Of a stretch of 16,100 nucleotides of DNA, positions 5,407-13,382 are shown in pieces. The position numbers and the translations under genes were made by a program. Position 1 is the first letter of the stretch. Every line of letters begins with the position of its first letter. The notes under the pieces are model-generated. The model worked only from the letters and a program-made list of their open reading frames with translations, made no database searches and had not been told where the DNA came from. Origin of the DNA: an uncultured archaeon (GTDB lineage: Archaea > Iainarchaeota > Iainarchaeia > Iainarchaeales > CSSED10-239); contig CAZPGO010000018.1 in NCBI GenBank assembly GCA_964586355.1, forward strand, positions 1-16,100, in the 5' to 3' direction.

Positions 5407-5575
5407 TCCTAGGCTTTCCTTTAAAGAAAAATTGTTTTGGGATTAAACTTTTATGAAAAAGTTTATTTCTCGAGGCTTTCTTTCTATTTCGTTTTTGATT
5501 AAACTTTTATGAAAAAGTTTATACTAAGCGAAACCATTTTTGTTCTTTCCCGAGGCTTTCTTTTTAAGAAAGGCT
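5407..5575 (+). repeat. Imperfect tandem repeat in an intergenic region (about 2.5 units)
   Basis: The exact 26-nt sequence gattaaacttttatgaaaaagtttat occurs at 5441..5466 and 5497..5522 (period 56). The box (c)gaggctttc(c/t)tt occurs three times, at about 5411, 5473 and 5553. Each 26-mer contains the inverted repeat aaactttt/aaaagttt. Confidence 0.7.
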
Positions 5576-5662
5576 CCAGTGGACAAGACCCCCCTTACAA
5601 AAATAACCCCTCTTTTAAAGATCATAAATATATATTTAAATATTTTTTTAAAAAGAGAAAAA

Positions 5663-6334
5663 ATGAAACTAAAAGAATATTGTCCAGATAATAGACCACT
5701 TGAAAGATTAATTTATTATGGACCAGAAACACTTTCCACCTCTGAACTACTAGCAATAATCATAAAAACAGGAACAAAAGAAAATAATGTTTTATCCCTA
5801 GCAAATATAATACTAAGTAAGTTTAATTTAGAAAAATTATCTCAAGTAACCATAAACGAATTAGAAGAAATAAAAGGTATTGGAAAAACCAAAGCAGCAC
5901 AGATAAAAGCACTTTTTGAAATATCTAAAAGAATTACTTGTTACAGATCTAATCTTTCCACAAAAGTTTTTAGCCCCAGAGATGTTTATAATTATTTAAA
6001 TAGTGAATATCTTAATTACCCTAAAGAAAAATTAATAGTAACCTGTTTAAATTTAAAAAACGAGATAATTTCTAAAAAAATTATATCTATAGGCACAGAC
6101 GATCAAACACTCTTTTCAACAAAAGAGATTATTAATTTTGCAATAAGAGAGTGTGCTAATGGGATAATAATATCTCACAACCACCCATCAGGAGTAACAA
6201 TACCATCTACATATGATAAAATAGCAACTGACAAACTAAAAAAAGCATGTGACCTTATAGATCTTCAATTAATAGATCATATGATATTTGCTAAAGAAGG
6301 ATATTATAGTTTTAAAGAAAATAAAGAACTATAA
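5663..6334 (+). CDS. radC: RadC-like JAB-domain protein
   Basis: From the ATG at 5663 the protein reads MKLKEYCPDNRPLERLIYYGPETLSTSELLAIIIKTG, the canonical RadC N-terminus. It has a helix-hairpin-helix segment (EEIKGIGKTKAAQIKA) and a JAB/MPN metal motif (HNHPSG). The ORF track's start at 5540 is a TTG with a low-complexity leader, so I prefer 5663. Confidence 0.85.
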   Translation: MKLKEYCPDNRPLERLIYYGPETLSTSELLAIIIKTGTKENNVLSLANIILSKFNLEKLSQVTINELEEIKGIGKTKAAQIKALFEISKRITCYRSNLSTKVFSPRDVYNYLNSEYLNYPKEKLIVTCLNLKNEIISKKIISIGTDDQTLFSTKEIINFAIRECANGIIISHNHPSGVTIPSTYDKIATDKLKKACDLIDLQLIDHMIFAKEGYYSFKENKEL

Positions 6335-7006
6335 TACAAAAAAAGTAGAAAAAGATAATACTACTAAAAAAATAATAGTAATAAAAGCACTTAGAAATGT
6401 AACCTGCTTAAAAGAAAGATACTTTGTTTTTGTAAGCTTTGATAAAAGAGAAGCAATATAAAATCCAAGAATCAAAAAAGCATAAAGTCCTGAAACAGTT
6501 ACAAAGCTTATAAGAGAGTATTCTACAAACTCTCTTATAATAATTAAGCAAACCACAAAGAAAAGTATAATTATACAAGTAGTTAAGAAAGTTAAAAAAT
6601 AAGATAAATTGTTTGCCTTCTTAGCAAAAGGATCATAAACTATATACCACAACAAGATCAAAGAGAATAAAAAGAAATTACTATAACTTGCTGTTTTTTC
6701 CACAAACATTAAAATTAAAAAAAATATAGCTGATAATATAGCAAAAAAGCTAGAAATATTTTTCACAAACTTTTTTTCTAAAAATGATTTTTTTGGTATT
6801 ATTATTTGTGGTGTTATTTTTTTAATCATTTTTTTTAGTTTAATTGGTCTATGCATAAAAGGATCTTTTATCTTTTTATTAACAGATCTTTTAAAAGCCT
6901 CTTTTTTTGTTGCTGTTTTCTTTAAAGATTTTTTTGATGGAGATCTTGTATTAACATCTTTTTTATTTCTAATTTTTTTTTCTTTTTTCAAAGTTGTTTT
7001 CACCAT
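6329..7006 (-). CDS. Hypothetical membrane protein with a lysine-rich N-terminal tail
   Basis: The 225 aa protein has about 75 strongly basic residues (KKEKKIRNKK...KKTATKKEAFKR) followed by 4-5 hydrophobic helices. I recognise no family. It overlaps the convergent radC 3' end by 6 nt. Confidence 0.45.
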   Translation of the reverse strand: MVKTTLKKEKKIRNKKDVNTRSPSKKSLKKTATKKEAFKRSVNKKIKDPFMHRPIKLKKMIKKITPQIIIPKKSFLEKKFVKNISSFFAILSAIFFLILMFVEKTASYSNFFLFSLILLWYIVYDPFAKKANNLSYFLTFLTTCIIILFFVVCLIIIREFVEYSLISFVTVSGLYAFLILGFYIASLLSKLTKTKYLSFKQVTFLSAFITIIFLVVLSFSTFFVL

Positions 7007-7047
7007 TAAACTAATATGTATATTTAATTAAAAATATTTATAAATCA

Positions 7048-8154
7048 TTAGATTTTATAGTTTTTAAGAAAATCAGCCTTAAACTTATTAAAAGTACCAT
7101 TTTCTATATGCTTTCTAGAATCTTCCATTAATCTATGAAGAAATCTTACATTATGTTCTGATAAAAGAATCTTTGCAGCTGCTTCATTTAATCTATATAA
7201 GTGATGCAAGTAAGCTATTGTGTGGTGTTTACAAGCATAACAATCACAATCCTCTTCTATTGGCTTAAATATGTGTGCATTATAGCTCTTACCTATCTTT
7301 AAAAAACCCTTTCTAGTAAATATAACACCATGTCTTGCCATCTTAGTTGGATAGATAGAATCAAAACAATCTACTCCTTTTTCTATTGAAATGATCATAT
7401 CTTGAGGTGAACCAACACCCATCAAATACTTTATTTTGTTTTTATCTAAATGTTCTAAAGAATAATCAATAGCTTTATACATATTATTCTTACTCTCACC
7501 AATAGCAAGACCACCAATAGCCAAGCCATCAAAACCCATATTGTTAATAGCAAGAGCACATTCTTTTCTTAGATCTTTATAAACACCACCTTGAACAATT
7601 CCAAAAACTTTTTGCTTTTTGTTTTTATGAGAATCTAAACATCTTTTTGCCCAATCAATAGTTCTTTTTGTAGCATCTTCAAACTCTTTTTTTGAGTGAT
7701 CTGGTCCTAAAACATGGTCTAGAACCATAGCAACATCTGAACCTATAATATTTTGATTATCCATTAATTTTTCTGGAGAAATAAAGTGTTCTGTTCCACA
7801 AAAAGGAGATCTAAATCTTACTCCTTTATCATTTAAGGATACTAAAAACTCCGGATCCAATAATTGAAAACCACCACTATCAGTAAAAATTGGTTTTTGC
7901 CAATTGATAAAGTTATGATAGCCTTTTGCTCTTTTTATGGTCTCAAGACCTGGTTTAAGATATAATAAATAGGCATTGGAAATAAAGCACTGAGTATTAA
8001 GATCTTCTAAAGATCTAAAAGTTAAAAATTTGCCAGCACCTTTAGTAACAACTGGCATATAAAAAGGAGTTTTTATTTTTCCGTGACTTGTTTTAAAGAT
8101 CCCAGATCTTGCCTGTTTTGATTCATTTGTAATTTTAAACATAATCTTTTCCAT
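7048..8154 (-). CDS. tgt: tRNA-guanine transglycosylase, catalytic domain only, bacterial/eukaryal (queuine-type) sequence flavour
   Basis: The 368 aa protein contains TPFYMPVVTKG, FTDSGGFQ, GGLAIGES, YLMGVGSPQDM...GVDCFDSIYPTKMARHG and the zinc site CDCYAC...AYLHHL. These blocks match Tgt/QTRT1-type enzymes rather than archaeosine ArcTGT, which has VDSGSFQ and LFGAGHP and carries C-terminal C2/PUA domains. Confidence 0.85.
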   Translation of the reverse strand: MEKIMFKITNESKQARSGIFKTSHGKIKTPFYMPVVTKGAGKFLTFRSLEDLNTQCFISNAYLLYLKPGLETIKRAKGYHNFINWQKPIFTDSGGFQLLDPEFLVSLNDKGVRFRSPFCGTEHFISPEKLMDNQNIIGSDVAMVLDHVLGPDHSKKEFEDATKRTIDWAKRCLDSHKNKKQKVFGIVQGGVYKDLRKECALAINNMGFDGLAIGGLAIGESKNNMYKAIDYSLEHLDKNKIKYLMGVGSPQDMIISIEKGVDCFDSIYPTKMARHGVIFTRKGFLKIGKSYNAHIFKPIEEDCDCYACKHHTIAYLHHLYRLNEAAAKILLSEHNVRFLHRLMEDSRKHIENGTFNKFKADFLKNYKI

Positions 8155-9332
8155 TAAATTTTATTTCTATCTTCTAAATTCTTTAAAACAATTAACTTCA
8201 TTAACTTTGTAAATTCAAAATCATTTCTTCTTTCAGAAAGTTTTGTTTGTCTCATATAAACATCAAAATAACCTGCAGGGATATTAACTAGCGGAAAACC
8301 AAACTTTACTAGAATTACAGAAAAGATAGCTCTTGAAGTTCTGCTATTTCCATCAATAAAAGGATGTATTCTTTGAAATTCATTATGCAAGTATGCTGCT
8401 TGTTCTATTATTTTACTTGGTTTTTCTTTTTTTGACATTACTTCTAATAATGTTTTATTAAACTTATCTAAAGACAAAGACAATTCTTTCCAATCTGTTG
8501 TTTTAAAATTAGGATTTCCTTTTATGATTACATTTTGTTCTCTAATTTTACCTACGCCGTAATCTAATGAGGCCATTGCAATCTTATGAAAAGCTAATAT
8601 ATTTTCTAAATTAATATCTTTAGTTAAAAGAAAATTTAAAGCAGTTTTGTAATTTTCAGTTTGTTGAATATCCTTATATAAAGGAACATTAGGAGTTATA
8701 TTTTCTCTTAATAACTTTTCTGTTTGCGGTAAAGTTAAAGTAATTCCTTCTAAAGATAAACTTGTATATACAAAATTAATGTGATCAGGTAAAGAAATCT
8801 TTTGTTTTTTTTTATATCTTGAATATTCTTTTTCTATCTTTGTATCAATGTCTAAATCATCATAATCTAATTTTGTTTTAGTATTTATATTTAAGAAAAA
8901 CTTAATTAATAAATCAGTAAAATTAGAAGGAATTATTCTTGCTTTTAATGGCCTTTTTGATTCTATAAATACCATTCCTGCTTTTGATAAATAATCGTTA
9001 TATTTTTTAATAGTTTTACTGTTAAACAAAGTAATATCTAAATATTTTTTAGAATAACCAGATGAAAGATATTTTGCTATATTTTTAGAAACAATTACAT
9101 TATAGTCTAAACCATTTTTAAAACAAAAATAAACTAATGAGAAAAGCTCTTGTGATTTTTGTTTATTTATTGAATAATGGTTGTTATCATTTATAACTAA
9201 GCTTTCTTCTTGTAATTTATTTAGATTATTATAAATTGATAAATAAGTAGCAGACGGAAGTTCTTCTCTTATCTCTTTTATTGTTTTTTTTGATAAAGCA
9301 ATTATTAAAAAAACATCTAGTTTTGTTGGCAT
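8154..9332 (-). CDS. Fic/DOC family protein with an N-terminal winged-helix-like domain
   Basis: The Fic active-site motif HPFIDGNSRTSRA matches HxFx(D/E)GN(G/K)RxxR, with Ser in place of Gly. An upstream S-x-x-x-E-G element (SLSLEG) matches the class II auto-inhibitory helix motif. The N-terminal roughly 60 aa (KKTIKEIREELPSATYLSIYNNLNKLQEESLV) looks like a wHTH. Its stop overlaps the tgt start (TAATG). Confidence 0.85.
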   Translation of the reverse strand: MPTKLDVFLIIALSKKTIKEIREELPSATYLSIYNNLNKLQEESLVINDNNHYSINKQKSQELFSLVYFCFKNGLDYNVIVSKNIAKYLSSGYSKKYLDITLFNSKTIKKYNDYLSKAGMVFIESKRPLKARIIPSNFTDLLIKFFLNINTKTKLDYDDLDIDTKIEKEYSRYKKKQKISLPDHINFVYTSLSLEGITLTLPQTEKLLRENITPNVPLYKDIQQTENYKTALNFLLTKDINLENILAFHKIAMASLDYGVGKIREQNVIIKGNPNFKTTDWKELSLSLDKFNKTLLEVMSKKEKPSKIIEQAAYLHNEFQRIHPFIDGNSRTSRAIFSVILVKFGFPLVNIPAGYFDVYMRQTKLSERRNDFEFTKLMKLIVLKNLEDRNKI

Positions 9333-9422: not shown

Positions 9423-10262
9423 TTAAATTATAAAAATATTATAAATCAAAATAGAAACAACACCTAGAAGTATATAGATTCCAAACCTTGGAAGATAATC
9501 ATAGATGGGAATTGATTTATATCCTAATTTCTTAATCTTCTCAATATCTTCTATTTCTAGAACTGCTCTTTTTTCTAGACCTGTTTCTTTTAATAAATCT
9601 TTATTACAAAACTCAATAGCTAAAACGTCTCCTTCTTCAAGTTTTGAAATTGGTTTTCTTCTTAAATAAATAAACTCTTTAACTTCATCTTCTAGAACCA
9701 TAACAATACAACCAAAAAACATTGGTGGGATTGTTAGGTATAGGTATTCAGGTAATCCTTCTTTAGCTACTGCATAGAAACACAATGCTAAGAAAAGAAC
9801 AAAGAAAAGGAGTGATTGAATTATTTTTCCTTTCTTTTTTTCTAATAATTCTTTTGTTATTTTTATTTTCCCATATAGTTTAATTATATAAGTTACTGAA
9901 ACAAACAACACTGACAAAAGAGAAGAAGCAATAATTGCCCATAAGATAAATAGTTGTCCTCCTAGATACGGTAAGATCATATGTATTCCAAGAAACAACT
10001 TAATATCCCCTCCACCAATCTTTCCATAATAGTAGGCGATGTAGCCAAAGACATAGATTGCTAGAGCTATTAAGAGAATTGACAATACATCCAGCCAATA
10101 GAAAGTAAAAAGATTAATAATTAATCCAATCACTATCAATGGAAGACTTATCCAATCAAATATATATCCTGTCTTATTATCATAATATGCCGCTAAACCA
10201 ACTGCAAGCAATAATGCAATAACTCTAATAATAAAAATTGTATCAAACATCATAGCACTCAC
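9423..10262 (-). CDS. A24-family aspartic peptidase (archaeal prepilin/preflagellin peptidase, PibD/FlaK/EppA-like)
   Basis: The 279 aa polytopic membrane protein has a first Asp region (AAYYDNKTGYIFDW) after TM1 and the second catalytic motif GGGDIKL (GxGD). A soluble insert of about 60-70 aa sits before the last TM helix, as in FlaK-type enzymes. Confidence 0.75.
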   Translation of the reverse strand: MSAMMFDTIFIIRVIALLLAVGLAAYYDNKTGYIFDWISLPLIVIGLIINLFTFYWLDVLSILLIALAIYVFGYIAYYYGKIGGGDIKLFLGIHMILPYLGGQLFILWAIIASSLLSVLFVSVTYIIKLYGKIKITKELLEKKKGKIIQSLLFFVLFLALCFYAVAKEGLPEYLYLTIPPMFFGCIVMVLEDEVKEFIYLRRKPISKLEEGDVLAIEFCNKDLLKETGLEKRAVLEIEDIEKIKKLGYKSIPIYDYLPRFGIYILLGVVSILIYNIFII

Positions 10263-10317: not shown

Positions 10318-11820
10318 TTAAGATAATTGATATATTTTATTTATTTTTCTAAGATAATAATTGGCATTTTTAATTTGCTCAGTTATAAAAATTCTTTTCC
10401 CAGTAAGTAATATTTTATTAATCATGAAGATAGATTTAAACAAATTAACAAAAATATAATTTCGGGTTTTATTTAAAGAAAAACCAAACCATTTATTTAA
10501 AAGAAAAGCATCAGCCCCTAGAACTCTAAAATATCTACCAACATCTAATAAAACAATTATATTTTCTTGATTGTTCTTAAAAAATAGACTCTGGTTTTGA
10601 AAATCAGTAATATTGTTTGAATATTTATCTGTTATTTTATTATTTTCAAAAATAAAAAAATTAAGTAAGAAAGGATTATCCTGCTTTAGCTTTATAATTA
10701 ACTTTTCACTTTTAGTGTATTTAAGATAACCTAAATAACTATTTATTGATCTTATAAACGCAGACGTAAATTTAAAATCAATTACCTGAATGTTATTTAC
10801 AAAATAATGACTTTTCTTCTTAAATTTATTTACTTTTCTAAAAATGTTATTCACCACTCTGTTCCTTGGTAAAAGATAGCTTGGTTTAATTATGTAACCT
10901 ACAAAATTTATTCCTGATGTTATTGGTTTTAGAATAGTTATTGGTTTTAATTTAAGATCTAGTTTCTCTTTTATAAACTCCTCAATCTTTTTTTTCAAAA
11001 GTAAAAGTTCTTCTTTTGATTTTGAAAGTATTATAAAATCATCAACATATCTTACATAGTGTTTAATTTTCAGTTCATGTTTAATGTATTGATCTAATTT
11101 ATTAAGATAAACGTTTGCAAAAAATTGACTTGTTAAATTGCCTATTGGTAGCCCTTTATTCTCATTTACATTAAAAAGAGTTTTATGTTCTGGAACACCT
11201 GCTTTTTTCCAAGTTAATCCTTTTTGAAAATAGTTGTTTGTTGGATTATGAAAGATTATAGTTTTTGTAAGCCAAAGCCAATTTTTATCTTTTATTTTTT
11301 TACTTAACATGTTAAATAATATATTTTTATCAATACTCATAAAAAAATTATGAATATCTAGTTGTAAAAAATACGCTTTTTCTTTTGAGTTTTTTGTAAT
11401 TTGTCTAGTGAAAGTTTGTGCTCTTTTTACTGCTTTTAAAGTTCCTTTATCTTTTCTACAAGCATAACTATCATAAATAAATATTTTTTCATAAGTGGGA
11501 TTTAAATAATTATAAAGTAGATGATGAATAACTCTATCTTTAAAATCAGCAGCAAAAACCTCTCTTGGTTTTGGATCAGTTATGGAAAAACAAACAGAGC
11601 GAGCTGGTATATATGTTTTATTATTTAAACAAACTACCAACTCTTGTAAATTACTTTCCAGATTGACTTCAAATTTTAAAGCATTAATTGTATTTCTTTT
11701 ATTTTTTCTACAATCTTTATATGCTTTATAAAGCTCCTCAAAAGTAAACTCATGTTCACGGACACAACGCACTTGTTTATCATTAGTCTTATTGTTGTTG
11801 TTGATGTTTCCATTGTTCAT
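10318..11820 (-). CDS. DGR-type reverse transcriptase with a C-terminal MutS-domain-I-like extension
   Basis: RT motifs present are PREVFAADFKDRVIHH, FLQLDIHNFFMSID, LPIGNLTSQFFANVYL (the [ILV]GxxxSQ signature of DGR RTs, aa 225-232), YVRYVDDFIIL (YxDD, aa 258-261) and INFVGYII. Residues about 405-482 resemble MutS domain I. The first roughly 23 codons lie inside the TR, so the true start is uncertain. Confidence 0.9.
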   Translation of the reverse strand: MNNGNINNNNKTNDKQVRCVREHEFTFEELYKAYKDCRKNKRNTINALKFEVNLESNLQELVVCLNNKTYIPARSVCFSITDPKPREVFAADFKDRVIHHLLYNYLNPTYEKIFIYDSYACRKDKGTLKAVKRAQTFTRQITKNSKEKAYFLQLDIHNFFMSIDKNILFNMLSKKIKDKNWLWLTKTIIFHNPTNNYFQKGLTWKKAGVPEHKTLFNVNENKGLPIGNLTSQFFANVYLNKLDQYIKHELKIKHYVRYVDDFIILSKSKEELLLLKKKIEEFIKEKLDLKLKPITILKPITSGINFVGYIIKPSYLLPRNRVVNNIFRKVNKFKKKSHYFVNNIQVIDFKFTSAFIRSINSYLGYLKYTKSEKLIIKLKQDNPFLLNFFIFENNKITDKYSNNITDFQNQSLFFKNNQENIIVLLDVGRYFRVLGADAFLLNKWFGFSLNKTRNYIFVNLFKSIFMINKILLTGKRIFITEQIKNANYYLRKINKIYQLS

Positions 11821-11856
11821 ATTGATGTTGTAGGCATTACCTGCCCCATACTCCGT
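11753..11856 (-). repeat. DGR template repeat (TR)
   Basis: The 104 nt align without gaps to 12535..12638 (offset +782). On the coding strand the TR is adenine-rich (about 43 A by my count). In the VR frame it reads T E Y G A G N A Y N I N M N N G N I N N N N K T N D K Q V R C V R E, with 11 AAY codons. Confidence 0.92.
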
Positions 11857-11990
11857 CGTGTTCTTTTGTGAAAGATCTTTTATTAAAAAATTTCATCTTT
11901 TATTACAAAAGTAGAAATTAATTAAATTTACTTTACTACCATCTAGGTGTCTTTCATCACCATGAATAACCGCTCTTGTAAAACTGCTTT

Positions 11991-12377
11991 TTATTTCACA
12001 TTTACAATTCCGGGCGTCTCTGTTTGTTCTCGCTTTTGCGAGCATAATAGCCAATTGTTGGCTTGAGTGGTAAGATTAGTTATTAATTTTGAAACATACC
12101 CGTGTGAATTTTTATTAGGAAAACCATTTATCTCTTGACATAATCTTACAACTAATTTTAATTCTTCAATTAGAATTATCAATTCTTGAATATCTGCAAT
12201 TTTTTTATTAGATACATTTGCTCTTATTACTTGCATTGCTATTTGTCTGGATTTGTTTTTTAGATCAGTTCCTATTGTAAACTTATTACCTTTATCAAAA
12301 TTTTTAACAATTTTTTCAAAATACACAGCCAAATCAAAAGAGGACTTATAAATTGCGAGGTTTTCATAATTAACCAT
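11991..12377 (-). CDS. avd: Avd-like accessory variability determinant (four-helix-bundle protein)
   Basis: The 128 aa protein sits between the target gene and the TR, as avd does in BPP-1. The N-terminal pattern YKSSFDLAVYFEKIVKNFDKGNKFTIGTDLKNKSRQIAMQVIRAN fits the four-helix-bundle (23S rRNA IVS-protein-like) family that includes Avd. Confidence 0.72.
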   Translation of the reverse strand: MVNYENLAIYKSSFDLAVYFEKIVKNFDKGNKFTIGTDLKNKSRQIAMQVIRANVSNKKIADIQELIILIEELKLVVRLCQEINGFPNKNSHGYVSKLITNLTTQANNWLLCSQKREQTETPGIVNVK

Positions 12378-12429
12378 TCTTAATCACACCACAGTTACCT
12401 TTTGCATTTTTCAAAAAAATTGCAACAAA

Positions 12430-12521
12430 AGTCACACCCCGCTGGGATGTGACTTTACAGACTCCCAAAACAAGACAACCGCTGGTTGTCTTGTTGTCTT
12501 TGACAAGCTTTGCTTGTCAAA
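12430..12521 (-). other. Three consecutive stem-loops immediately 3' of the VR/target stop codon
   Basis: Hairpin 1 (12430..12454): agtcaca-c-ccc / gct / ggg-a-tgtgact, 10 bp with one mismatch. Hairpin 2 (12469..12495): aacaagacaacc / gct / ggttgtcttgtt, 12 bp perfect. Hairpin 3 (12499..12521): tttgacaagc / ttt / gcttgtcaaa, 10 bp perfect. Hairpins 1 and 2 share the apex ccgctgg. Confidence 0.8.
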
Positions 12522-12530
12522 AACCATTGC

Positions 12531-13382
12531 TTACTGGTCACGGACACAACGCACTCGTCCACCATTGGTCTTATCGGTGCTCTTGATGGCCCCAGGCTTC
12601 ATATCGATGCTGTAGGCACTACCTGCCCCAGACTCCGTGCTTGACCAATAATCGTCACTTACTAACGAGACAAAGTTACTGTTTGTCGCTAAAATTGCTG
12701 CATTCATACAAGCATTAGATTTAGTTTGCGCAGTACATGCCTCCCAAATAATCATTAACTGACTAGCAGATGGAAGATACCAATCTGTGTAACCATTTGA
12801 ATCTAAATTATCACAATAATCCATTGCTTGTTGCCAATTCATAGTAGTTGTGTTTTGATCTGGCTGAATGTATAGCTTGCTATTCCCAAACATCACATAT
12901 GGCAAATCAACAATCGGCGCTGTGTAGTTGTTGGTTATGTTTTTTATACCTATATATTGATTGCTTGTTGTCTGTAAAATGATTGTGACTTTGGTGTTAG
13001 TAGTTAACCCTAACTTAGAAAAATCTGTTAAGGAGATAACATTTGTTCCTTGCTTTAAGGTGTAAGGGGATGAAAGATTGGTGTCTGAACTTTCTCCAGC
13101 ATCGGAAATTACCTTATATTTACTTATTACTAATTCTCCAAAATTACTTTGAGGAGAATAACTGAATTGAAGAACTCCGTCTTGTAAGGCTTTTGGATAA
13201 ATAAAAGCTTCTGCATCGGATTGAGTAAGTTCAGCAACTGTTGTTTTATTTAAGGCATCAGTTGTAAACATCTTTCCCCAATTTAAGACAATAGTCACTA
13301 AAATGACTGCAACAACGATTAACAGAATTGCTGCAATCAATGGAGAAACAGATTTTTTTCTAAAGTTTAATTTTGATTTCAT
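12531..13382 (-). CDS. DGR target protein: class III signal peptide (archaeal type IV pilin N-terminus) plus a DUF1566/C-type-lectin-fold-like variable C-terminal domain
   Basis: The N-terminus RKKSVSPLIAAILLIVVAVILVTIVLNW matches the archaeal pilin N-terminal pattern (R/K-x-x-SP-hydrophobic helix). The C-terminal half, MNWQQAMDYCDNLDSNGYTDWYLPSASQLMIIWE...DYWSST, resembles DUF1566 (Lcl C-terminal-like) domains known as DGR targets. The VR covers the final 34 codons. A GAGGT Shine-Dalgarno-like box lies about 10 nt upstream of the ATG. Confidence 0.85.
   Translation of the reverse strand: MKSKLNFRKKSVSPLIAAILLIVVAVILVTIVLNWGKMFTTDALNKTTVAELTQSDAEAFIYPKALQDGVLQFSYSPQSNFGELVISKYKVISDAGESSDTNLSSPYTLKQGTNVISLTDFSKLGLTTNTKVTIILQTTSNQYIGIKNITNNYTAPIVDLPYVMFGNSKLYIQPDQNTTTMNWQQAMDYCDNLDSNGYTDWYLPSASQLMIIWEACTAQTKSNACMNAAILATNSNFVSLVSDDYWSSTESGAGSAYSIDMKPGAIKSTDKTNGGRVRCVRDQ
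12535..12638 (-). repeat. DGR variable repeat (VR) at the 3' end of the target gene
   Basis: 84 of 104 positions are identical to the TR. Of the 20 differences, 17 fall where the TR coding strand has A. The 3' (coding-direction) 17 nt gtgcgttgtgtccgtga are identical in both and GC-rich, which is IMH-like. The VR encodes TESGAGSAYSIDMKPGAIKSTDKTNGGRVRCVRD, the last residues of the target. Confidence 0.92.

Follow-up and report, generated by a model that had tools for sequence, protein, structure and literature searches.

We analysed a 16,100-nt stretch of contig CAZPGO010000018.1 from an uncultured archaeon (referred to below as the window; all positions are counted along it) and found on its minus strand a locus that we read, with a probability of about 0.93, as a diversity-generating retroelement (DGR) that is intact and lies on the chromosome of a DPANN archaeon. 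The parts follow one another in the order target gene, avd-like gene, structured spacer, template repeat (TR) and reverse transcriptase (RT) gene, and the three open reading frames (ORFs), i.e. those for the target protein, the Avd-like accessory protein and the RT, are all intact. Coordinates of these and other features are collected in Table 1.

The TR and the variable repeat (VR) at the end of the target gene align at a constant offset of 782 nt with no gaps and are identical at 84 of 104 positions (81%), the VR stopping one codon short of the target-gene stop codon. On the minus strand the changes from TR to VR are 11 A to G, six A to C, two C to G and one T to C, i.e. 17 of the 20 differences fall on TR adenines (hypergeometric p=2.7e-6 for the window allele). 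This p-value, like those given below, takes into account the A content of the TR (43 of 104 bases, 41%). The 11 AAY codons of the TR read S, S, D, K, P, A, K, S, T, D and N in the VR of the window. The pair is the sole long repeat of the window, which holds many weak low-complexity repeats besides, and the homology of the TR ends 2 nt past TR/VR position 102. An earlier sequence-only reading of this DNA had described the 104-nt pair with its offset, its identity and its lack of indels, the 17 adenine differences, the adenine content and the AAY codons with their VR residues, and each of these figures was reproduced on recounting. Of the three mismatches at other bases, one (the T to C) proved to be a private single-nucleotide polymorphism (SNP) of the window TR, as set out below. 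The invariant 3' end of the pair, which that reading had likened to an IMH (initiation of mutagenic homing) element, contains the 17-mer GTGCGTTGTGTCCGTGA, present in exactly two copies in the window against 0.00 expected and invariant in all VR alleles. The suggestion that the VR region owes its GC richness to A-to-N replacement in a very AT-rich genome stands in part: GC is 57% in the VR against 39% in the TR, but the GC-rich stretch 12400-12700 also includes three GC-rich hairpins 3' of the stop codon, and the raised GC around the VR is therefore only partly the result of adenine replacement.

The VR is variable in natural samples. Contigs from at least nine samples, found by exact-protein look-up of the RT, the Avd-like protein and the neighbouring SRP54, were 99.9-100% identical to the window outside the VR over 1.7-3.4 kb. 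Their source metagenomes are JGI 3300001335, 3300001533, 3300077317, 3300077522 and 3300077562-64, SRR2986055 and SRR1179181. Four VR alleles were present among them, namely that of the window (also in L001, L006/L040, L007 and L042) and those of L002, L008 and L043. Any two alleles differ at 20-27 of the 104 positions, whereas their flanks of ~2-3 kb show 0-1 differences. When the four alleles were compared with the consensus TR, 79 of the 85 substitutions lay at TR adenines (per-allele p from 2.7e-6 to 5e-11), and 31 of the 43 TR adenines were polymorphic among the alleles against 6 of the 61 other positions. The sole AAG codon of the TR that is able to mutate to a stop is unchanged in all alleles, and its Lys is conserved across the family, a pattern that fits selection on a functional protein. 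Six related loci have the same cassette with adenine-specific TR/VR pairs of their own.

The TR, by comparison, is constant. Five TR copies from other contigs are mutually identical, and the window TR differs from them by a single private SNP, a synonymous C to T at 11785, where all other TRs and all VR alleles have C; this explains the T to C mismatch of the window pair, and the mutation has not yet been copied into the VR. Several contigs break at one of the two repeats, VR or TR, which is what a hypervariable repeat should cause in assemblies. The check proposed in the sequence-only reading, i.e. a VR polymorphic at TR adenines beside a constant TR, therefore gave the pattern of a DGR in these contigs. 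The same reading had called the system recently active, and because the alleles differ so strongly on near-identical flanks, the comparison argues for DGR activity that is recent relative to strain divergence, at the level of the population. An exact scan of a metagenome contig collection, which apparently does not include the source samples, gave no match to the VR 3' flank, and a cluster look-up returned no further VR alleles. The short contig L008 (MLSed_10098771), which has its own VR allele, carries deletions of 62 nt in the target gene and of 37 nt near the RT start and, compared with the window, is rearranged at its end; it may be a degraded copy or a product of chimeric assembly.

The RT contains the motifs LPIGNLTSQ and YVDD, in line with the IGNLTSQ signature noted earlier. 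Its best solved relative is bRT of the Bordetella phage BPP-1 (8ub7, E=8e-43), followed at a distance by a group II intron RT (1.5e-12) and a retron-type RT (also ~1e-12). Scores against the group II intron, retron and Drt3a models were far below their cut-offs, and PADLOC gave generic RT matches only. Membership of the retron or group II intron clades, which the sequence-only reading had put forward as an outcome that would tell against a DGR, is thus not suggested by these comparisons, bRT being by far the closer relative.

The RT gene begins inside the TR. Its ATG at 11820 is TR codon 13, in the reading frame of the VR, and the first 21-22 residues of the RT are encoded by the TR. This ATG is the only in-frame start after the upstream stop and is conserved in relatives; a GTG in IMH*, i.e. 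the copy of the IMH in the TR, was also considered as the RT start and was rejected, as relatives have GTT or GTA in its place while the ATG in the TR is conserved. The conserved N-terminal helix of the RT (FTFEELYKAY) begins five residues past the TR-encoded VRCVR, and 51 of the top 120 RT homologues show an N-terminal match to Lcl_C, which is the translated TR.

At its other end the RT has an extension of ~110 aa. A profile of 32 RT C-termini matched MutS domain I of Taq MutS (residues 16-116, E=2.5e-11) and also E. coli MutS, MSH6 and MSH3, and 63 of the top 120 RT homologues are annotated with Pfam MutS_I. The mismatch-recognition motif of MutS domain I is Phe-x-Glu (GxFYE); bacterial relatives keep VGRFYEF, and the archaeal RT subclade reads VGRYFR or VGKYYR (Phe to Tyr, Glu to Arg). 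The close relatives L009 (4953-6191) and P0004, at 73-74% identity, have a 412-aa RT without the MutS-I-like domain. L009 still has an adenine-specific TR/VR pair, and the domain may therefore be dispensable.

The predicted protein of the gene between the target gene and the TR gave nearly full-length matches to Pfam bAvd-like (E=8.3e-9, 36.3 bits, cut-off 40) and to NCBIfam DivGenRetAVD (E=1.7e-9, below cut-off). A single-sequence AF2 model is a four-helix bundle with a TM score of 0.82 to BPP-1 Avd (4dwl_E), for which the Foldseek E-values were weak. The gene is kept at the same position in relatives, and its position and conservation favour its assignment as avd; the sequence-only reading had noted an Avd-like gene in the canonical order. 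The spacer between avd and the TR is 134 nt long and contains an element for which RNAalifold, run on eight related cassettes, predicted a nested fold of 25 pairs, with helix A formed by 11955-11950 and 11875-11870; 97.5% of cells were paired, and seven pairs were changed on both sides against 0-1 in slid controls. We regard this element as a candidate upstream portion of the DGR RNA. Scans of the window for Rfam families and tRNAs gave no match.

The 3' end of the VR is followed by three hairpins (H1 to H3 in Table 1). Folded as DNA, this region gave z=-6.75, and all three hairpins are kept in six related cassettes with compensatory changes. H1 is kept in relatives despite a different sequence. 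In H2, three pairs were changed on both sides across seven related cassettes against 0-2 in slid controls, and the loop AGC is invariant; for H3, compensatory differences were found in L009, L046, L094, L048 and L050. Just past the IMH, at position 102, the TR has A (GAA) whereas all VRs have C or T (GAC/GAT), and this difference extends to relatives. RNAalifold also predicted a small hairpin of 11761-11767 with 11750-11756 (UUGUGUC-CGUG-AACAUGA), made up of the 3' half of IMH* and the first bases past the TR; it shows no compensatory (both-sides) covariation, and the fixed A/C difference at position 102 would break it in the VR copy. A search with a degenerate IMH pattern returned 67 loci, mostly chance matches, of which ~10 were in related cassettes.

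The target protein looks like an archaeal type IV pilin fused to a variable lectin domain. Pfam gave Lcl_C (E=2.5e-16) and, below cut-off, Pilin_N (E=0.008). The N-terminus RKKS|VSPLIAAILLIVVAVILVTIV consists of basic residues, a small residue at the cleavage site and a hydrophobic helix, and the stretch RKKS|VSPLIAAILLIVVAVILV corresponds to an archaeal class III (pilin-type) signal and aligns with the Pyrobaculum type IV pilin 8fk7; the N-terminal consensus of the family is KKA-I-x-P-L-I-A. An AF2 model from 29 homologues (pLDDT 80) consists of a helix (14-43, in a region of low pLDDT, 42-72), a beta-sandwich (61-152) and an alpha/beta domain (162-283). With this model Foldseek found the C-terminal domain of Legionella Lcl (8q4e, E=1.3e-6), snake-venom C-type lectins and the Ig-plus-lectin adhesin InvE, together with the archaeal type IV pilins 8fk7 (E=1.4e-4), 6nav and 6w8u. 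There are ~37 full-length homologues, some of them named 'flagellin-like protein' by JGI. From the pilin-type signal, the helix and the beta-sandwich we therefore infer that the diversified protein most likely serves as a variable adhesin, exposed at the cell surface or carried on a pilus. The target of L050 (552-1748, 398 aa as called) has the same pilin-like N-terminus and Lcl_C end, and that of L048 (74-1705) is 543 aa as called; the middle region of these proteins appears to be modular. A full-text literature search brought up no paper in which DGRs are connected to archaeal pilins; its coverage did not extend to Paul et al. 2017 (Nat Microbiol), where a prior description is possible.

Two neighbouring genes bear on this subject. 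The product of the Peptidase_A24 gene directly 3' of the RT gene has ~160 extra C-terminal residues that match no family. Two genes upstream of the DGR target is a 93-aa ORF with a class-III signal, which looks like a small archaeal pilin.

Table 1. Features of the DGR locus and of neighbouring pilin-related genes in the window
Feature	Position	Strand	Description
TR	11753..11856	minus	41% A; 11 AAY codons; reading frame shared with RT
VR	12535..12638	minus	last 34 codons of target gene; gap-free 104-nt match to TR
IMH-like segment GTGCGTTGTGTCCGTGA	12538..12554	minus	identical in TR and VR; no A before last base
Hairpin H1	12496..12524	minus	starts 10 nt past VR; ~10-bp core stem in 13-nt arms, loop AAA
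Hairpin H2	12469..12495	minus	12-bp stem; conserved CC-AGC-GG apex
Hairpin H3	12428..12456	minus	13-bp stem, loop AGC, followed by T-rich run
Target gene, 283 aa	12531..13382	minus	class-III signal and helix, beta-sandwich, C-terminal Lcl_C/DUF1566 C-type-lectin domain bearing VR
avd-like accessory gene, 128 aa	11991..12377	minus	between target gene and TR
Structured element in avd-TR spacer	11870..11955	minus	RNAalifold prediction from eight related cassettes; nested fold
RT ORF, 500 aa	10318..11820	minus	RVT_1 E=7e-21; start ATG inside TR
RT C-terminal MutS-domain-I-like module, ~residues 395-500	10321..10638	minus	Pfam MutS_I E=0.001, below cut-off
Peptidase_A24 (prepilin peptidase family) gene	9423..10262	minus	directly 3' of RT gene; Pfam E=8.6e-10
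Small pilin-like ORF, 93 aa	15145..15426	minus	begins MVKKGQISIEIIILLG; Pfam Class_IIIsignal E=2e-4, slightly below cut-off

If the locus works as the Bordetella phage system does, a transcript reaching from the spacer through the TR into the 5' part of the RT gene would be bound by the RT and Avd. The TR would then be reverse-transcribed with random nucleotides inserted opposite template adenines, and the cDNA would replace the last 34 codons of the target gene, guided by the A-poor IMH and by the hairpins just 3' of the VR, while the TR itself would be left unchanged in retrohoming. By way of the eleven AAY codons, about a dozen surface positions of the Lcl_C domain could vary widely without giving rise to stop codons. 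The downstream part of the DGR RNA would, in this arrangement, have to sit inside the RT coding sequence.

Several observations weigh against the reading as a DGR that varies a pilin-lectin, or against parts of it. Neither a PDB sequence search nor a 7-member profile search with the Avd-like protein found an Avd match, and both matches of this protein to Avd hidden Markov models fall below the curated cut-offs. The Phe-x-Glu motif is absent from the MutS-I-like module of the window, which reads VGRYFR. The adjacency of the Peptidase_A24 gene to the cassette is not conserved in relatives, and processing and assembly of the target as a pilin are predicted from its sequence and model. The allele diversity was read from assembled contigs, and of the 85 VR substitutions six fall on TR bases other than adenine. 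Furthermore, three positions that lie 14-23 nt upstream of the TR homology, namely 12652, 12653 and 12661, differ between contigs that have no other differences; the codon changes are GAT to GTT or AAT, and GTA to GGA. Position 12653 is also the exact end of two contigs, and no SNP is present in the other ~720 nt of the target gene. TR/VR homology beyond 11856/12638 was sought both ungapped and with small shifts, and no convincing alignment was found; as the TR provides no template there, these sites are not explained by the standard mechanism. Error-prone repair at the 5' integration junction, a longer second donor elsewhere and assembly chimeras are candidate explanations.

Three other accounts of the locus were weighed against the DGR reading. 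The most serious is that the element is a relic, i.e. a DGR that no longer works, and that the strains inherited their VR alleles as old standing variation. Such a view could draw on the fact that DGR activity is read here from sequence, on the truncated 412-aa RT of the close relative L009, which lacks the C-terminal domain, and on the private point mutation that the window TR has gained; that mutation, however, is a synonymous one that has yet to reach the VR, and all three ORFs are intact. Against a relic there is also the contrast between VR and flanks: since the alleles differ at 20-27 of 104 positions while ~2-3 kb around them are near-identical, the variation is much younger than the divergence of the strains, and we consider a relic very improbable.

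The remaining two accounts can be set aside with still greater assurance. Pilin antigenic variation independent of an RT, with the A-rich copy serving as a silent cassette that is moved by gene conversion or recombination, comes to mind because the target is pilin-like, some bacterial pilin genes vary by gene conversion and one donor-like copy lies nearby. Gene conversion should, however, make the VR resemble its donor rather than differ from it at the donor's adenines (79 of 85 substitutions); there is, moreover, a single donor copy in the window, and a DGR-type RT and an Avd-like gene accompany the repeat pair. We therefore give this account almost no credence. The same degree of disbelief applies to the idea that the pair is a chance repeat or a duplicated fragment whose adenine bias is a by-product of an AT-rich genome. 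The genome is indeed very AT-rich, and the window holds many weak low-complexity repeats, but the TR/VR pair is the only long repeat, is 81% identical and ends in a 17-mer expected 0.00 times, the p-values already allow for 41% A in the TR, and the same architecture recurs in relatives, so that this account is effectively refuted.

Beyond the reading as a working DGR, a more far-reaching and distinctly tentative proposal, which we think rather less likely to be right than wrong, is that the cassette represents a distinct DGR lineage of DPANN archaea and several bacterial phyla. In this lineage the TR would double as the N-terminal coding sequence of the RT, the RNA elements needed in priming would lie partly in the structured spacer upstream of the TR and partly in the coding region of the RT, and the RT's own MutS-I-like module would handle the mismatched cDNA:VR heteroduplex. 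It would have been recruited here to vary a lectin fused to a type IV pilin, i.e. as a programmable pilus adhesin of an episymbiotic cell, and the variable sites 14-23 nt outside the TR would be the footprint of error-prone repair at the 5' integration junction.

The host is, judged by gene content and nearest genomes, a DPANN-type archaeon. Genes for S19e, L31e, eIF-6, prefoldin and Rpr2 lie just upstream on a contig that is identical to the window where the two overlap, and the nearest RT-bearing genomes are unclassified archaea, then Pacearchaeota, Woesearchaeota and Nanoarchaeota; the host is therefore taken to be archaeal. A bacterium of the candidate phyla radiation was considered as the host on account of the bacterial-type Tgt, RadC and Fic, and was ruled out by S19e, L31e, eIF-6 and prefoldin. 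The genes concerned are a bacterial-type, queuine-type Tgt (above the TIGR00430 cut-off) and RadC at 5540-8154, with an adjoining Fic-domain gene at 8154-9332, and they may have been acquired horizontally. In a close relative the cassette adjoins proteasome and FttA genes.

To our knowledge, DGRs are the only natural systems in prokaryotes that target proteins for hypermutation, and they are particularly frequent in the very small, symbiotic DPANN archaea, where their targets are mostly of unknown function. The target described here is readable, i.e. a pilin-type surface protein with a variable lectin end, encoded near a prepilin peptidase gene, and it leads to the testable hypothesis that hypermutation lets DPANN archaea vary how they attach to host cells or surfaces. 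Four VR alleles against a background that is otherwise clonal amount to a natural experiment that could be followed in time-series data, and retrohoming beyond the Bordetella phage model could be approached by way of the three conserved hairpins, the structured spacer between avd and TR and the MutS-like domain fused to the RT. The element is not of a new kind: DGRs of this kind are already known, and the unusual features of the cassette have mostly been catalogued in surveys, including the start of the RT inside the TR and the MutS-domain-I-like end of the RT, both of which were previously reported in DGR surveys. The pilin-lectin target, the triple hairpin and the structured spacer nevertheless merit specialist attention.

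The prototype DGR of BPP-1 (mtd-avd-TR-brt) has the same gene order of target, avd (here an avd-like gene), TR and RT, and shares with the present cassette its adenine-specific mismatches, a C-terminal VR in a C-type-lectin fold, an IMH-like 3' segment and an inverted repeat past the VR; its bRT is a clear homologue of the RT described above. In BPP-1 a TR-brt spacer of ~140 nt serves both to prime cDNA synthesis and to bind Avd (Handa et al., PMC6182149; bioRxiv 10.1101/2023.10.23.563531), and the Bordetella system requires RNA on either side of the TR, upstream and downstream, which wraps the RT-Avd complex (bioRxiv 10.1101/2023.10.23.563531). The present cassette, in contrast, has no TR-RT spacer, the RT starting inside the TR, and has a conserved, apparently structured non-coding RNA upstream of the TR instead. 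BPP-1 carries a single hairpin, of 8 bp and with a GRNA tetraloop (Guo et al., PMC3240598), and the canonical DGR hairpin has a GC-rich stem of 7-10 bp with a GRNA tetraloop at 4-34 bp from the VR (PMC3240598), whereas the archaeal cassette carries three, of ~10-13 bp and with 3-nt loops. The two systems also differ in that the RT of the archaeal cassette has the extra MutS-I-like domain and that its host replicon is an archaeal chromosome rather than a phage. DGRs of Bacteroides diversify Type V pilus adhesins (bioRxiv 10.1101/2024.11.15.621889) and offer a functional analogy, i.e. a DGR that varies an adhesive component associated with a pilus; the pilus type (V against archaeal type IV-like), the RT lineage and the domain of the host are all unrelated, and the archaeal target is a putative pilus component.

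The DGRs of Nanoarchaeota and other DPANN archaea (PMC4372165; Roux et al. 2021, PMC8144416) share the DPANN host, the compact cassette and hairpins with trinucleotide loops, the last of these described for nanoarchaeal DGRs by Paul et al. 2015 (PMC4372165). Those described from Nanoarchaeota differ in having a TGGGGT/TGGAAT IMH and GRA loops, against an IMH beginning GTGCGTTGTGT and AGC loops here; TGGGGT/TGGAAT motifs are present in the more distant relatives L012-L038. Archaeal DGR targets are reported usually to lack recognisable transmembrane or conserved domains (PMC8144416), with which the distant DPANN targets of L012-L038 agree in having no pilin-like N-terminus; the target of the window, unlike those described from DPANN archaea, combines a class-III signal with a pilin core and an Lcl_C domain.

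Wu et al. 2018 (PMC5758913) described three RTs with a C-terminal MutS_I motif of weak similarity, together with a separate MutS-like (MSL) accessory family. The C-terminal extension related to MutS domain I is shared with these RTs, as is a DUF1566/Lcl_C VR, which corresponds to their category d (Legionella DGR). In place of three RTs, however, 63 of the top 120 homologues examined here have MutS_I, the extension profile reaches E=2.5e-11 to MutS structures, and the Phe-x-Glu motif has been lost in the archaeal subclade while it is kept in bacterial members. Finally, group 3 of DiGReF consists of DGRs whose TR overlaps with the RT ORF as annotated (Schillinger et al. 2012, PMC3521204), and the overlap of the TR with the 5' end of the RT ORF is common to that group and the present cassette; here, by contrast, the overlapping part is read in the frame of the VR codons, and a large clade has kept this arrangement.

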